Assembly (NCBI GenBank): GCA_963666345.1
Contig: OY762721.1
Location: forward strand, 1,632,001-1,696,000
DNA length: 64,000 nucleotides
Origin: Desulfatiglandales bacterium
Lineage (GTDB): Bacteria > Desulfobacterota > DSM-4660 > Desulfatiglandales > Desulfatiglandaceae
Direction: 5' to 3'
Position 1 is the stretch's first letter. Each line of letters begins with the position of its first letter. Positions 18,560 to 54,072 of this stretch are shown here, piece after piece. Both the position numbers and the translations under genes were made by a program. The notes under the pieces are model-generated. The model saw nothing but the letters and a program-made list of their open reading frames with translations. It did no database searches and had not been told where the DNA came from.

Positions 18560-18725
18560 GTGAAAAACCTGCAACAGACGTTGCTGTTCGTTACTGGTTA
18601 CTCGTTACTGGTTATTGCGGGAAGATCTACCTTCTGACCGGTTTGAAGGACAGGCTGAAAAGGGTTAAGAGCAGGTAAATGTAATCGCTAATGGTTTTCA
18701 GCATCACTGTCTGAAGACAGGCGGA

Positions 18726-18908
18726 GGCACAGGGTCCCTTTTCTGAGGCCTTATCTCAAAAAAAAATACCACAGGCAGATACAGTGGCCGCAGACCCGGC
18801 TTTACTCCCGGATGCCCTTTCAATTCATACTTTGCTTCCAAAAGCCGGAGGGATGCGGTCACTTCTCCCAAACAAATAGATAAGGCCGGGGAAAAGGGTG
18901 CCGGCGCC
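18726..18908 (+). ncRNA. Candidate structured RNA (rod with central bubble), diverged copy of the 50.4-51.3 kb repeat core
   Basis: Nested stems CCCTTTTC/GAAAAGGG, GGCCTTATCT/AGATAAGGCC, AGTGGCCGCA/TGCGGTCACT, CCGGCTTT/AAAGCCGG; GTTACTG heptamers on both sides. Confidence 0.6.
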
Positions 18909-19103
18909 GGAGCAACAGGCCTTGTTACTGGTTACCTGCTGTTTGGAAAAACTGCAAAATGTGAAAATCGGGTTGATATTCAATCTATTATCATTAGATT
19001 ATTTGAACGGCCCTTATCCGTGATTCACCAATAAGAATCGGGATGGTCAGGCCGGCAAATATTGTCTTTTCAGCACACTACCGTTAAGTTCAGGAGTAAA
19101 GCC

Positions 19104-48896: not shown

Positions 48897-48944
48897 GGGC
48901 ATCCAGCAGAATTTCCCTTGATGCCTGATCAAGCACGGTGCCAG

Positions 48945-50330
48945 ATGCCTGTTGAAAATGATACAATAACCGCCATAGCAACTCCGATCGGCCGGGCGGG
49001 GATCGGCATAATCAGGATAAGCGGCCCCAGGGCGGAAGACATCGTCAAGACCCTTTTCCGGCCTAGCAAGGCCGTTTCAAATCTAAAAAGCCACCATTTA
49101 TACCTGGGGCATCTCCATGATCCTGAAACAGGAGATACCATTGACGAAGTACTTCTTTCCCTGATGAGGTCTCCTGATTCCTATACAAGGGAAGACGTTG
49201 TCGAAATCAATTCTCACAGCGGCTATATGCTCCTGTCAAAGATCCTGGAGACCGTAATCAGGCAGGGGGCAAGGCTTGCGGAGCCGGGAGAGTTCACTTT
49301 CAGAGCCTTTATAAACGGGAGGATAGACCTGACCCAGGCAGAGGCAGTGGTGGACCTGATAAATTCTCAATCCCTCAAAGGGCTCAGCCTCGCCTCGCAG
49401 CAGATCAAAGGAAGCTTCAGAGACTGCCTATACGGACTCAGGGAAGAGACCCTCAAGCTGCTTGCCCAGACAGAGGCGGCAATCGATTTTCCTGAAGAGG
49501 AAAATGAGATATTGTCACGGCAGGTCTCGGCAAGAAAAATTGAAAAAGACATAATAAAACCGATTGACTCTCTGATAAAGGAAGGCTCCAGGAATCGCCT
49601 GTGGGTCGACGGAGTAAAGACAATAATAGTCGGACGCGTAAACGCCGGAAAATCGAGTCTCCTGAACCGCCTTCTGGACGAGCAGAGGGCTATTGTTACC
49701 CCTATTCCCGGTACCACCAGGGATATTGTGGAATCTACAGTAACGATCGAGGGGATACCACTTCGCCTCATGGACTCAGCCGGATTCCGTGACGTAACCG
49801 ATGAAGTTGAAGAGTTAGGCATTGAGTTGACACGGCAAAAACTGGCCGAAGCCGATTTAATTCTTATAGTCATTGACCAAAGTCGCGACATCGAAACCGA
49901 TGATATTGACTTAGTGGCAAAATGCGCTGGGAGGGATGCGCTCATAGTCCTGAACAAGATAGATCTTCCGCCCGGAGCTGACAGGCACAAATTAGAGGAA
50001 AAGATTTCAGGCCTCCCCGTTATCGAAGTATCAGCACTTACGGGCAGTGGCCTTGAAGGTCTCAAAAAGGCCATTTCAAGGTCTATACTTAACGGAGAAA
50101 TCGACATGATATCATCTCATGCCACTTCTAATGCAAGGCATCAACAGGCGCTGAAAGGGGCCGCATCTTATTTCAGACAAGCGGCAGCCAATGCACAAAA
50201 CGAGGCCCCTCTGGAGTTAATGGCCTCAGATCTGAAAAGCGGGCTGGATGCCCTTGGAACAATCACGGGAGAAACCACAACCGAAGACATCCTTGACAGC
50301 ATCTTCAGCCAGTTCTGTCTCGGCAAATAA
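48945..50330 (+). CDS. mnmE: tRNA modification GTPase
   Basis: DTITAIATP, GRVNAGKSS, GTTRD, NKID, FCLGK. Confidence 0.98.
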   Translation: MPVENDTITAIATPIGRAGIGIIRISGPRAEDIVKTLFRPSKAVSNLKSHHLYLGHLHDPETGDTIDEVLLSLMRSPDSYTREDVVEINSHSGYMLLSKILETVIRQGARLAEPGEFTFRAFINGRIDLTQAEAVVDLINSQSLKGLSLASQQIKGSFRDCLYGLREETLKLLAQTEAAIDFPEEENEILSRQVSARKIEKDIIKPIDSLIKEGSRNRLWVDGVKTIIVGRVNAGKSSLLNRLLDEQRAIVTPIPGTTRDIVESTVTIEGIPLRLMDSAGFRDVTDEVEELGIELTRQKLAEADLILIVIDQSRDIETDDIDLVAKCAGRDALIVLNKIDLPPGADRHKLEEKISGLPVIEVSALTGSGLEGLKKAISRSILNGEIDMISSHATSNARHQQALKGAASYFRQAAANAQNEAPLELMASDLKSGLDALGTITGETTTEDILDSIFSQFCLGK

Positions 50331-50478
50331 CCGCCGCAACCCTTTGCACTCTCAATTTTAAATCACATTATATCTACCGAGCGGGACGCACATCGTTACT
50401 CGTTACTGGTTGTTCGAAAAACCGGATACACACCCCTGTCCATTTCAAAACAACCCTGTCTGTCTACGCACAAGCGCA

Positions 50479-50660
50479 GGCGCAGGGGCTCTTTTTGGAG
50501 ACCTTATCTCACAAAAAATACCACAGGCGCTTGCAGTTGGCCGCAGACTGGGCTTTCTTCCCCGCTACCCTATCAGATAAGGTTACATCTGCAAAAGCCC
50601 GTGGATGCGGCTACTTCTCCGTAAGAAATAGATAAGGCCGGAGAAAAGAGTCCCTGCGCC
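50479..50660 (+). ncRNA. Candidate structured RNA core, copy 1 (182 nt)
   Basis: GGCGCAGGGGCTCTTTT/AAAAGAGTCCCTGCGCC closing stem, CCTTATCT/AGATAAGG, TGGCCGCA/TGCGGCTA, TGGGCTTT/AAAGCCCG; wobbles are G-U on the + strand. Confidence 0.6.
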
Positions 50661-50771
50661 GGAGCGGCACCCTGCCGGACGCGCATCGTTATTCGTTACT
50701 GGTTATTCGAAAAACCGGATACACACCCCTGTCCATTTCAAAACAACTCTGTCTGTCTACGCACGAGCGCA

Positions 50772-50953
50772 GGCGTAGGGGCTCTTTTGGGAGACCTTAT
50801 CTCACAAAAAATACCACAGGCGCTTGCAGTTGGCCGCAGACTGGGCTTTCTTCCCCGCTACCCTATCAGATAAGGTTACATCTGCAAAAGCCCGTGGATG
50901 CGGCCACTCCTCCGTAAGAAATAGATAAGGCCGGAGAAAAGAGTCCCTGCGCC
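50772..50953 (+). ncRNA. Candidate structured RNA core, copy 2
   Basis: Same fold; substitutions keep pairing (C-G to U-G, G-U to G-C). Confidence 0.6.
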
Positions 50954-51064
50954 GGAGCGGCACCCTGCCGGACGCGCATCGTTATTCGTTACTGGTTATT
51001 CGAAAAACCGGATACACACCCCTGTCCATTTCAAAACAACTCTGTCTGTCTACGCACGAGCGCA

Positions 51065-51246
51065 GGCGTAGGGGCTCTTTTTGGAGACCTTATCTCACAA
51101 AAAATACCACAGGCGCTTGCAGTTGGCCGCAGACTGGGCTTTCTTCCCCGCTACCCTATCAGATAAGGTTACATCTGCAAAAGCCCGTGGATGCGGCCAC
51201 TCCTCCGTAAGAAATAGATAAGGCCGGAGAAAAGAGTCCCTGCGCC
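51065..51246 (+). ncRNA. Candidate structured RNA core, copy 3
   Basis: Near-identical to copy 2. Confidence 0.6.
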
Positions 51247-51489
51247 GGAGCGGCAGCCGAATGAACGTGCAGGGTTATTTGTTACTGGTTATACGGAAAA
51301 ACAGGAAACACATCATCCAGCCGGTTATTTAACATCTGTGCCCGCCGGCGCCTGAGCGATCAAAGGCAAGGCAGCCCTTCGCTTCAACTCAGGGTCATGA
51401 GCATGTCGAACGGCGGATGATGCCTTGATGGTGAATAATGAGTTCATTTGGCCATTTGACAAAAAGTACCAACAGGAGTAATAGATTAA

Positions 51490-51578
51490 ACATTGGGGGA
51501 GCCGGTGGATATCGGCTGAGAGGGGGCTTAAAGCCCCGACCCATGGAACCTGATCCGGGTCATGCCGGCGTAGGGAGG
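51490..51578 (+). promoter_or_regulatory. TPP riboswitch
   Basis: GGGGAGC...CTGAGA...ACCC...GAACCTGATCCGGGTCATGCCGGCGTAGGGA; downstream TTCCCTCCTCC can sequester the GGAGGGGG RBS. Confidence 0.95.
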
Positions 51579-51641
51579 AAATTCCGCTTTTATTGCTTTT
51601 CCATTCCCTCCTCCGGTCTGTTCCCTTCAGGAGGGGGAAAA

Positions 51642-52382
51642 ATGCTTTCCATTTCAAATCTTTCAAAACGCTTCGAAGACCTTGTAGTGCTTGACGATTT
51701 CAGCCTCCAAGTTCCCAGAAACGGATTCACCGTCCTTATCGGCCCTTCAGGCTGCGGTAAAAGCACCCTTTTTGACGTTCTTACAGGGGTTGAAGAAAAG
51801 GACAAGGGAGACATCTCATGGCTGGGGAAACAGATGCCTGACCTGAGCAGAAAGGCTGCCTATATGCAGCAGAATGATCTGCTCCTTCCCTGGCTCTCTC
51901 TCGTTGAAAATTCCCTCCTGCCCGCGAAGATAGCCGGAACAGACAGGCGGGAGGCGAAAAAACAGGCGGATGCCCTGTTTGAAAGACTCGGACTTCAAGG
52001 ATTTGAAGACTATCTCCCGGCAAAGGTATCAGGCGGAATGCGTCAGCGCTGCGCGCTCGTCAGGACCATAATGTTTGAACAGGAGCTGGTCCTGCTGGAT
52101 GAACCCCTTTCAGCCCTTGACGCCATCACCAGGAGAAGCCTGCAATCCCTTCTACTGCTGCTTCAGAGCGAATTCAAAAAGAGTCTCCTCATGATCACCC
52201 ACGATGTGGAAGAAGCACTGCTGGTTGCAGATGAGCTGATCGTTCTGACCTCTTCGCCCATGGGCATCCATGAAAAGATCAGGATACCGGACCGGAAGCC
52301 CAGATCGGCAAGCGACCCTAAGCTCATAAAATTGAAAGAGGAAATTCTTGAAAGGCTGCAGGAGGATCCCGAAATTGATTAG
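51642..52382 (+). CDS. ABC transporter ATP-binding protein (ThiZ-like, thiamine/HMP precursor uptake)
   Basis: GPSGCGKST, VSGGMRQR, LLDEPLSALD; ATG 51642 behind RBS. Confidence 0.92.
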   Translation: MLSISNLSKRFEDLVVLDDFSLQVPRNGFTVLIGPSGCGKSTLFDVLTGVEEKDKGDISWLGKQMPDLSRKAAYMQQNDLLLPWLSLVENSLLPAKIAGTDRREAKKQADALFERLGLQGFEDYLPAKVSGGMRQRCALVRTIMFEQELVLLDEPLSALDAITRRSLQSLLLLLQSEFKKSLLMITHDVEEALLVADELIVLTSSPMGIHEKIRIPDRKPRSASDPKLIKLKEEILERLQEDPEID

Positions 52383-53112
52383 GCCCGGCTATATCTCACT
52401 ATTTGTGGTTATAATCCTGCTTGCCGCCTGGGATATCCTTTGCAGGGTCTTCCATATTCCGGACTTTATCCTGCCGGCACCTTCGGAAATCTTCAAGGTA
52501 GCGCTGTTTCAGGCACCCCTGCTCCTGCCCCACGCATTGGTAACCGGGTTGGAGATCATTCTTGGAATTGCGATATCCCTCGCAATAGCCTTACCCCTTT
52601 CCACATTGATGTTCGCCCATTCATCCATAGAGAAGGCCTTATCGCCTTTCCTGGTTGCATCCCAGGCGGTCCCTGTATTTGCCCTTGCCCCTCTTCTGGT
52701 GGTCTGGCTGGGTTACGGAATCGCAAGCAAGGTCATAATGGCGGCTGTAATCATCTTTTTCCCGATCACTGTAAACCTGCTGGAGGGATTCAAAGACTGC
52801 GGGTCGGAATACAGGTTTCTCTTTAAATTGATGGGGGCAAATTTCTGGAAAAGGCTCAGGCTGCTTCACTGGCCCTGGGCCCTTCCCTATTTCTTTGCAG
52901 GGCTCAGGGTGGGCGTCTCGGTGGCCACTATCGGCGCCGTGATCGGTGAATGGGTAGGTGCCCAGAAAGGCCTTGGCTATCTTATGATTCAGGCAAACGC
53001 CAGGCTCAAGGTGGATCTCGTCTTCGCAGCGATTCTATGGCTGTCTCTGATGGGTCTCGGCATGTGGCGAATGGTAGGTTTTCTTGAAAAAAGGGTAATT
53101 CATTGGAAATAA
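52375..53112 (+). CDS. ABC transporter permease (ThiX-like)
   Basis: ILPAPSE, ALPYFFAGLR, GAVIGEW, GLGY. Confidence 0.92.
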   Translation: MIRPGYISLFVVIILLAAWDILCRVFHIPDFILPAPSEIFKVALFQAPLLLPHALVTGLEIILGIAISLAIALPLSTLMFAHSSIEKALSPFLVASQAVPVFALAPLLVVWLGYGIASKVIMAAVIIFFPITVNLLEGFKDCGSEYRFLFKLMGANFWKRLRLLHWPWALPYFFAGLRVGVSVATIGAVIGEWVGAQKGLGYLMIQANARLKVDLVFAAILWLSLMGLGMWRMVGFLEKRVIHWK

Positions 53113-53127
53113 AATGGGGAAAAATTC

Positions 53128-54072
53128 ATGAAAAGATTTTCGTTGATACTTTTTACACTTATGGTAATTTCTTGGCCGGCCGCCCCGCTTCGGGCGGAAG
53201 TAAAGATAACCCTGCTGCTCGACTGGTTTCCCAATGTGGATCATCTGCCCATTTATATTGCAAAGCAGAGGGGGTTCTTTTCGGAAAAAGGCCTGAAAGT
53301 GGAGATAATAAGCCCGTCCGAAACCTCTGACGCGCTTAAGCTGAGCGCGTCCGGCAACGTTGACATTGCAGTTGCCTATGAACCTCAGACACTCGTCGGC
53401 GCCTCAAGAGGCCTGGGAATAAAGGTGATAGGGAGGCTTGTCGGTCATCCCCTCACGACTCTGCTTTTCCTGGACGGAAAGGGGATTGAAAGGCCTTCCG
53501 ATCTTGAAGGCAAAAGGATAGGATATACCGTCCCCGGCATGATGGATATTCTCACAGAGGCCTTTACCAAGATCAACGGAATCAAGGAATATACCCCGGT
53601 GAATGTCGGCTTCGCCATTGTCCAGTCCCTGACCGCAGGAAAAATCGACGCCATAATGGGAGCCTACAAGAACTATGAAACCGTCGAGCTGGAGCAAAGG
53701 GGTTATAAGGCAAAATTCTTTGCCCTTGAAAAATGGGGCATCCCCGACTATGACGAACTGGTCTTTATAAGCGGCTCAAAGGCCATAAATGGAAAGGCCC
53801 GATCCCTCAGGGCCTTCTCCGAGGCGGTCGGCAAGGCTATTTCAGAAACCAGGGCACACCCTGAAAAGGCCTTGAAGGAATATTTCAAGGCCTTGCCCGA
53901 GGCACCTAAGGAAATGGAATCCGAGGCCTTCAAAAGGACCCTGCCCCTCTACGCCGAAACCCAGGAACATGACAGCGATGCCTGGCAAAAGTTTGCCGAT
54001 TTTGCCTTCACATACGGGCTCATAGAAAAAGAGGTGGATGTGGAAGGCATCCTGCATGACTGGGGCAAGTGA
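53128..54072 (+). CDS. NMT1/THI5-family substrate-binding protein (ThiY-like)
   Basis: Signal peptide, LDWFPNVDH, GIPDYDELV; TPP riboswitch upstream. Confidence 0.92.
   Translation: MKRFSLILFTLMVISWPAAPLRAEVKITLLLDWFPNVDHLPIYIAKQRGFFSEKGLKVEIISPSETSDALKLSASGNVDIAVAYEPQTLVGASRGLGIKVIGRLVGHPLTTLLFLDGKGIERPSDLEGKRIGYTVPGMMDILTEAFTKINGIKEYTPVNVGFAIVQSLTAGKIDAIMGAYKNYETVELEQRGYKAKFFALEKWGIPDYDELVFISGSKAINGKARSLRAFSEAVGKAISETRAHPEKALKEYFKALPEAPKEMESEAFKRTLPLYAETQEHDSDAWQKFADFAFTYGLIEKEVDVEGILHDWGK

Follow-up and report, generated by a model that had tools for sequence, protein, structure and literature searches.

ERIC/IRU, BOX and Correia elements are intergenic repeats, mosaic or palindromic in build, that occur in enterobacteria, pneumococci and Neisseria respectively. 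Members of the 6S RNA family (SsrS, RF00013) are rods of ~180–200 nt with a large central bubble; there are one or two copies per genome, against tens for the element described here, and they lie at a conserved locus, which in E. coli is zapA-ssrS-fau. For ERIC/IRU-, BOX- and Correia-type elements, see Delihas (2011; PMC3184786). In other published accounts, bacterial MITEs with long stem-loop transcripts are represented by QMITE2 of Coxiella (PMC10969869), palindrome-associated elements by REP/REPIN sequences with RAYT and by derivatives of IS200/IS605 (PMC3333891, PMC5027513), and a replication-linked orientation bias is described for insertion sequences (PMC3971601).

We analysed a stretch of DNA of 64,000 nucleotides, here called the window, from a sulfate-reducing bacterium of the order Desulfatiglandales. 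Between mnmE and the riboswitch-led operon of a thiamin transporter it carries a tandem array, which we think is probably made of three copies of a composite non-coding repeat from an order-wide, non-autonomous, MITE-like family. The array is probably a recent local triplication of one family member. Tandem Repeats Finder reports this array only, at 50384–51312 (period 293, 3.2 copies, 96% matches, zero indels), and a repeat search gives three 300-nt copies at 100, 96 and 95% identity together with a fourth, partial copy of the first 36–50 nt. Each unit has two parts, a ~98-nt heptamer-bearing 5' part followed by a ~195-nt core, and the cores of the three units are 97.4–99.5% identical in pairwise comparison. 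There is no ORF across a whole unit; the array holds only ORFs of 46–56 aa, none of which is common to all units. The preliminary description, made from the letters of the DNA and its ORFs, had proposed three tandem 293-bp units, each with a heptamer spacer and a core and with no ORF spanning it, and in these respects it was correct. The features are listed below in window coordinates; R1 denotes the covariance model built from 35 cores of this genome (G000).

48918..50330, + strand: upstream neighbour mnmE, encoding the tRNA modification GTPase (Pfam MnmE_helical, TrmE_N, MMR_HSR1); its end lies 54 nt from the start of the array.
50384..51312, + strand: tandem array, comprising three complete 293-bp units and the beginning of a fourth (Tandem Repeats Finder, repeat search).
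50384..50471, + strand: 5' module ('A') of unit 1, consisting of a linker, three GTTAYTS heptamers (50395–50415), then GAAAAACCGGATACACA and CCTGTCCATTT.
50472..50666, + strand: hairpin core of unit 1, 195 nt (R1 match of 214.6 bits at 1682472–1682666 of G000).
50677..50764, + strand: A module of unit 2 (Tandem Repeats Finder, repeat search).
50765..50959, + strand: hairpin core of unit 2 (fold, core alignment, R1 208.9 bits).
50970..51057, + strand: A module of unit 3 (Tandem Repeats Finder, repeat search).
51058..51252, + strand: hairpin core of unit 3 (core alignment, R1 210.3 bits).
50502..50527, and again 50795..50820 and 51088..51113, + strand: block of highest conservation, which lies along the central bubble on its 5' side (CCTTATCTCAC, a run of 6–7 A, TACCACAGG).
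51263..51358, + strand: incomplete fourth unit, made up of a degenerate A module and, after it, the stub GCCGGCGCCTGAGCG (51344–51358).
51485..51594, + strand: TPP riboswitch, the downstream neighbour, outside the element (Rfam RF00059, 70.3 bits).
51642..52382, 52348..53112 and 53128..54072: ATPase, permease and NMT1/THI5-like binding protein of the ABC transporter behind the riboswitch (Pfam).
18596..18913, + strand, core about 18719–18914: diverged family copy in the same window, equivalent to 1650596–1650913 of G000 (nhmmer, R1 182.1 bits).

The three heptamers of unit 1 stand in tandem and read GTTACTC, GTTACTG and GTTGTTC. At the other end of the array, the stub consists of the 5' and 3' feet of the core joined together, the interior of the hairpin being absent, and it could equally be the product of a slippage deletion. 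By eye, clear endings of an A module plus a stub occur at four other loci, with a less exact one at a fifth. The sequence GGTGCCGG occurs at each of the two feet of the core. We considered it as a possible target duplication and rejected this, because it is near self-complementary and a direct repeat is then expected from the stem itself. A version of the array on the metagenome contig L054 has two units and a partial one, compared with three here.

The core of a unit is predicted to form an extended, imperfectly paired hairpin interrupted by a large internal bubble rich in A (MFE −80.1 kcal/mol, z = −3.07, equalled by 0 of 200 shuffles), in keeping with the rod and A-rich central bubble drawn in the preliminary description; the reverse strand of the same single core copy is also stable (−86.0 kcal/mol, z = −2.77). 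Where the stems of the three array cores differ, they have C or U opposite G, and so read as G-U on the + strand. We then aligned 35 cores of the genome, leaving out one degenerate copy. RNAalifold predicted 34 pairs on this alignment, which we extended to 44 pairs in five helices. Paired cells amounted to 93.7%, compared with 91.6 ± 0.3% in shuffled alignments and 43–54% when the partners were slid by one to three columns, and 17 pairs had changed on both sides, compared with 7.2 ± 1.7 in shuffles; neither value was reached in any of 500 shuffles, a control that overstates significance because the core copies are paralogues, while the slid control is unaffected by this. Across genera, compensatory changes were present at 26 of 34 predicted pairs (19 cores from 14 genomes). 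Covariation, proposed at the outset as a check on the fold, is thus strong both within the genome and across genera.

The fold belongs to one strand. The helices contain 107 G-U cells and 18 A-C cells when read on the + strand, which is the more stable strand for 26 of the 35 copies under RNA parameters and for all 35 under DNA parameters, and RNAalifold run on the reverse complement gave only 18 pairs, 6 of them common to the + strand set. A mutational bias on the lagging strand would be expected to yield A-C mismatches rather than G-U pairs, and the strand asymmetry of the core therefore looks selected. The earlier suggestion of selection on a + strand fold is supported by these counts, by the pairs changed on both sides and by the cross-genus compensation. 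The conserved block on the 5' side of the bubble, noted earlier as AAAAAAUACCACAGG, is also real: its columns are invariant or nearly so in the core alignment of this genome, and it is retained across genera.

The build of the element recalls that of ERIC, BOX and Correia elements, as it is modular (an A module in which the number of heptamers varies, a core and a stub), consists of intergenic imperfect palindromes that fold on a single strand, and occurs in tandem and solitary forms. It differs from them in belonging to another sequence family in another phylum, in having a longer core (195 nt) with a large, conserved, asymmetric bubble, and in the covariation documented for it in 14 genomes.

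The resemblance to 6S RNA required closer attention, since the preliminary description had taken the core to be 6S-like and had named an octamer of the E. coli RNA, ATACCACA, seen also in the element. The octamer is indeed present in E. coli ssrS, and in the element it lies in the 5' strand of the bubble; it is the only sequence likeness between the two. They are also alike in length (185–195 nt) and in the predicted succession of closing stem, central bubble and apical stem. Nevertheless, the Rfam comparison that had been suggested at the start gave no match of the element to 6S RNA or to any other family: no family of Rfam 15 matches the array at gathering score, and no match was obtained at E ≤ 10, RF00013 included, on either 1.5 kb of sequence or a single core. 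RF00013 was also absent from a search of the whole genome. Among 20 relatives it was found only in G031 (85.7 bits), which serves as a positive control, and at the places of the element in relatives there was no Rfam match to 6S. In the other direction, R1 run unfiltered against the E. coli ssrS region and the 6S RNA of G031 gave noise only, at most 5.7 bits. The genome has no gene for 5-formyl-THF cyclo-ligase (PF01812), so that the usual synteny route to 6S RNA is closed and, with no RF00013 match either, the organism's own 6S RNA is unaccounted for. The element, in contrast to 6S RNA, has 36 copies at 31 loci with unrelated neighbours and rides on a mobile element in relatives. It departs from 6S RNA in every testable feature of membership but general shape; the 6S-like reading is unsupported, as is membership of the family, and the array is not 6S RNA.

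A broader form of this idea is that the family consists of genes for a trans-acting small RNA, either a 6S-like polymerase decoy or a protein sponge, which are transcribed from their own promoters and whose dose is raised by the array; the A-rich bubble would then imitate an open promoter or serve as a protein-binding site. The predicted ~195-nt rod with its large asymmetric bubble, the strand-specific covariation with the bubble as the best-conserved part, and the octamer shared with E. coli 6S would all suit such genes, as would a genome that, like 19 of the 20 relatives, gives no RF00013 match and that lacks the cyclo-ligase gene. We nevertheless find this reading unlikely, given the failure of the Rfam and R1 searches just described, the number of copies at unrelated loci with no conserved gene context, and a scan of the array that found no sigma-70-like promoter and no intrinsic terminator above chance. 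Evidence from substitutions, from relatives and from orientation, which also bears on it, is given below.

We return to the reading that we prefer, that of a MITE-like repeat family, and to its distribution in this genome. The preliminary description had left the copy number to a BLASTN search; the array unit gave 51 matches in its own 4.16-Mb single-contig genome, and about 36 dispersed copies were eventually recognized. Three rounds of nhmmer yielded 105 matches, which reduce to 65 non-overlapping places: 36 near-full copies (those covering at least 150 profile positions) at 31 loci, and 29 fragments, 21 of which, at 19 loci, are away from full copies. The median pairwise identity of cores in the genome is 78%. 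Two other tandem pairs have core identities of 97.9% and 93.8%, and tandem neighbours are mutual closest relatives, as are, often, copies within about 10–25 kb of each other. The closest dispersed pair is 92.8% identical, and there is therefore no sign of very recent jumps. A typical locus has the recurrent layout A-core-A-stub, and in the 24 of 36 copies that were compared, similarity stops sharply at the 3' end of the core.

Every copy sits between ORFs. For every locus, we took the closest ORF of 110 codons or more on either side (59 ORFs, and two in the window) and compared it with Pfam, which matched 52 of the 61. None of the 61 has a transposase, recombinase or reverse-transcriptase domain; the matches are to ordinary metabolic and housekeeping genes without a common function. 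The surroundings of the copies bear on the possibility that the host has adopted the element as a cis-acting leader, stability or processing site, or promoter module for a co-oriented downstream gene, here the thiamin transporter operon. Of the 31 loci, 17 have a co-oriented downstream ORF, whereas that strand carries only about 40% of genes, and by our reading four loci have thiamin-linked neighbours (the array locus, and loci beside ThiD-like, TenA-like and transketolase genes). At the remaining 14 loci, however, the downstream ORF is on the opposite strand, a comparison that relies throughout on crude, longest-ORF gene calls; the neighbours share no function, no promoter or terminator consensus was found, and the transporter operon already has a TPP riboswitch as its own leader. 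We consider a cis-acting role very improbable.

Outside this genome, the family is patchily distributed over the order and restricted to certain lineages. A BLAST-level search found no copy in 40 relatives, and only the covariance model reached them. R1 matches were obtained in 9 of 101 genomes of the family to which the organism belongs, its own genome counted, and, at the level of the order, in 33 of 151 genomes belonging to 17 of 76 genera, with three families represented (f1, 2 of 54; f3, 16 of 34; f6, 14 of 53). Most R1-positive genomes are multicopy, with up to at least 16–25 copies per genome, and 27 in G168. Single matches were found in G016, G090 and G068, between argB and argD, beside suhB and yggU, and between hdrD-like and mvhD-like genes respectively. 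As these single-copy contexts are unrelated, an orthologous RNA gene can be dismissed. When 19 cores from 14 genomes are aligned, the TATCTCA-A(n)-AT(A/T)CCAC block and a few others are retained. A motif scan of 185,579 species genomes produced one match, which the nhmmer profile missed and which we took to be due to chance, and a motif scan of metagenomes produced 27 loci, all of the same organism (96.6–100% identity), with no independent copies.

Relatives also provide evidence for mobility. In the sister genus g53, the core is flanked by terminal inverted repeats, the left one being GGTAACGTTCAAAAGT and the right one its complement. We inspected 24 g53 elements and located both ends in 15. 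The flanks of these matched in at least 7 of 8 bases in 9 of the 15, compared with 8.6% of mismatched flank pairs, and the target duplications are 8–9 bp in length; at locus L102 the duplication is an exact, non-repetitive one of 9 bp. Given the terminal inverted repeats and the 8–9-bp target duplications, the core in the sister genus is a MITE or, put differently, the cargo of MITEs in relatives. Inspection by eye further revealed a 9-bp direct repeat around an inverted repeat matching at 14 of 15 positions in G090 (L094), ends of the g53 type in G190, and different ends in G128. The same g53-type ends bound a second, unrelated MITE family of ~346 bp in G055, a genome in which the end motif occurs 92 times, compared with 3 for a control. 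A putative sigma-54 promoter in the upstream module of the sister genus (TGGCAT-N5-TTGAT) was rejected, since by eye the GC at −12 is absent.

In this genome, a right-hand inverted repeat, a target duplication and a g53-type terminal repeat were all looked for and not found, and transposition here is something that we infer from the relatives. The A module does, by eye, resemble the left terminal inverted repeat of the g53 elements. An autonomous element with matching ends was found neither here nor among the motif pairs of G055, G078, G093 and G103, whose draft assemblies may have lost one. Otherwise the element has the features of a MITE: it is short, lies between genes in many copies and codes for no protein, a transposase included. 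With QMITE2-type MITEs, the similarity extends to the whole element being a stable hairpin and, in the sister-genus copies, to terminal inverted repeats with direct repeats of 7–9 bp. The differences from those MITEs are that no right terminal repeat or target duplication is visible in this genome, that the inner core rather than the ends is conserved and has different ends in different lineages, and that orientation is strongly tied to replication. The preliminary description had offered, besides 6S RNA, a non-autonomous mobile element with a structured RNA, and this fits the dispersed intergenic copies, the patchy multicopy distribution, and the terminal repeats and target duplications of sister genera. 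The last two are at the same time arguments against small RNA genes.

Across genera, conservation is higher in the core than in the terminal repeats, which vary by lineage. For a plain MITE the reverse would be expected, and the sequence comparison suggests that the core may be a payload with a function of its own. The pattern of substitution has some bearing on what is being conserved. Changes private to one copy, a class that is blurred by parallel changes, are distributed almost uniformly (conserved block, 0.48 per column; paired columns, 0.67; unpaired columns, 0.56), and 42 of 59 private stem changes break a pair (7 G-U, compared with 10 A-C). When changes are instead polarized against the nearest neighbour, which reaches further back in time, their rate in the 5' bubble is 3.3-fold below that of unpaired columns elsewhere, and pairing is maintained in 106 of 168 stem changes (40 G-U, compared with 21 A-C). 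We read this as constraint on the lineages that spread and near-neutral decay of the copies that are resident, on which weak selection may nonetheless act. For the small RNA genes considered above, the two sets of changes pull in opposite directions: the depletion in the bubble and the tendency to keep pairs would be expected of them, whereas youngest substitutions that ignore structure would not.

One candidate function of a payload is that of an RNA or single-stranded DNA cofactor of a mobile-element enzyme, by analogy with TnpB/IscB guides, the bridge RNA of IS110 and attC, the copies being protein-less passengers served in trans. Such a role could account for a core kept across genera while the terminal repeats differ, and for a fold under selection in spreading lineages and not in the youngest changes. 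The genome moreover has 17 PF01797 matches, representing IS200-type Y1 transposases, although none adjoins a family copy. We think this role improbable all the same. Omega and bridge RNAs are encoded beside the gene of their protein (TnpB, IscB or an IS110 recombinase), whereas this genome has no match to the TnpB-type domain (PF07282) and none of the 61 flanking ORFs is a transposase or recombinase. Parentage by IS200/IS605 was rejected, because the six near-identical IS200 copies of the genome end in hairpins that are different from, and unrelated to, the element. The target duplications of 8–9 bp point to an ordinary, staggered-cut transposase. The comparison with REPIN/RAYT and IS200/IS605-derived elements is similarly divided: dispersed strand-specific hairpins, a replication-tied orientation and Y1 transposases in the genome are common ground, whereas here the repeat does not flank any Y1 gene and is unlike the ends of IS200. 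Single-strand transposition is not known to make target duplications, which the elements of the relatives do show.

The copies are not placed at random with respect to replication. The origin lies at ~2.15 Mb, where GC skew and gene strand bias switch sign and two dnaA homologues are found, and for the count of orientations the terminus was set near 0.12 Mb. The folding strand is the lagging strand for 33 of the 36 copies and at 28 of the 31 loci (p = 4.6e-6), and the three exceptional loci are all within 170 kb of the origin. At the array, the + strand is the lagging strand, and GC skew is negative there. Loci with solitary fragments follow the same rule in 17 of 19 cases (p = 7e-4); because most of these fragments have no hairpin, hairpin stability alone cannot explain the bias. 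In the single-contig genome G168, about 17 of 27 copies obey the rule, which is not significant; this was counted by hand, with the terminus placed opposite dnaA by assumption, and the assembly has 8% contamination. A sense strand that is head-on to replication at 28 of 31 loci would be unusual for highly expressed RNA genes. For a cofactor of a mobile-element enzyme, on the other hand, an orientation tied to replication even in hairpin-less fragments is a point in favour. In IS608-type single-strand transposition, however, the polarity is opposite to the lagging-strand bias of the family, the folded strand of IS608 lying on the strand opposite to that of the present family.

Taking these observations together, our preferred reading, a MITE-like family amplified in tandem at this locus, would work as follows. 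In g53, the inverted repeats and target duplications mark insertion carried out by a transposase acting in trans; the copies of this genome may have arrived in the way seen in the sister genus and then multiplied locally. Unequal recombination between direct A modules, comparable to that which produces solo LTRs, would convert such copies into tandem arrays and solitary A modules. Direct A repeats within an A-core-A-stub layout would account for arrays and solitary A modules alike, as well as for the version of this array with two units on L054. The hairpin is presumably not a mere by-product of inverted repeats, because compensatory pairing is confined to one strand, be it inside this genome or between genera, and conservation is highest in the 5' bubble. 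We suggest that the fold is needed as a single strand, either a transcript or single-stranded DNA at the fork, by the lineages that spread, and much less by residents; the need is placed in the spreading lineages because the youngest single-copy changes break pairs freely. The near-uniform placement on the lagging strand would point to insertion, or survival, that is coupled to replication. The array itself is probably of no use to the cell and at most a structured spacer between mnmE and the leader of the thiamin transporter.

A more far-reaching proposal is that the core is a functional single-stranded molecule carried on small transposons, being either an RNA or folded DNA strand required in trans by a mobile-element protein, or a selfish 6S-like RNA that would bind RNA polymerase and spread in the manner of a gene. 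We hold this to be rather doubtful. If it were true, the covariation, the bubble, the swapped ends and the polarity would be signs of a new RNA-dependent or single-strand mechanism of mobility.

The best reading of the locus remains tandem amplification of a structured mobile repeat, non-autonomous in kind, whose family is new and occurs across the order. Rfam 15 has no entry for this family, and a search of the full-text literature found no description of it. Its recognition removes a tempting but false 6S call from the annotation, and accounts for a whole class of repeats found between genes, both here and in no fewer than 17 of the 76 sampled genera of the order. It brings together three traits that are seldom documented in one bacterial MITE, namely a covarying structured core, different ends and a near-uniform orientation to replication. 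Since multicopy structured motifs of this kind have earlier proved to partner transposon proteins, it is reasonable to examine the family by RNA-seq and to look for its transposase.

In at least 80% of copies, a TACC on the conserved 5' side of the central bubble can pair with a GGTA that adjoins the apical hairpin (columns 50-53 and 116-119 of the alignment of 35 cores from the genome under study), a possible long-range or pseudoknot contact within the core. By eye, a further pairing is possible between the bubble's CCAC and a GUGG in the helix that follows, an arrangement also present in E. coli 6S RNA.

In the 5' leader of six near-identical IS200-type elements (genome positions 3695309, 3777867, 4158235, 4119863, 3096119 and 3105166), an A-rich stretch is followed by GAATACC, which together resemble the block found in the bubble of cores from the sister genus. 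The left end of all six carries a hairpin, CCACCAG...CTGGTGG, immediately 3' of CCTTAA, and the right end a hairpin followed by TTGTTAAAT. The likeness of leader and bubble block may be due to chance. The genome also contains 15 identical copies of a 247-aa ORF (413527, 416372, 759326 and 12 more places), each with a weak Bac_DnaA match of 26.6 bits; these look like IstB, the helper ATPase encoded by IS21-type insertion sequences, here from one that has been active recently. Two full-length dnaA homologues, of 444 and 448 aa, lie at 2154127 (+ strand) and 2163464 (- strand), 9 kb apart on opposite strands, where GC skew switches sign.

Comparison of metagenome contig L056 with L060 and L053 shows that it joins the sequence flanking the copy at genome position 1223912 to a stretch which by profile matches resembles the A module downstream of the copy at 1208772. 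This junction could reflect a strain in which ~15 kb between two similar copies has been deleted, or the contig could be a chimera of the assembly.

Thiamin-linked neighbours occur, by our reading, at four of the 31 loci: a TPP-riboswitch transporter at the array locus (window 51485-54072), and a ThiD-like kinase, a TenA-like protein and a transketolase at the others (genome positions 1876054, 3770929 and 3848636). This association is probably fortuitous.

Runs of three to five GTTATTn heptamers were also found without the hairpin core, at 2030596, 2040370, 1962403, 2064690 and 2082842. The short repeated modules adjoining such core-less runs comprise TTGTCAAGCGAAGCGGGCGGCAAA, GCGAGAAAGGCG-type sequences and TYGAAYCC runs, and mosaic intergenic repeats seem to form a broader system in this genome.
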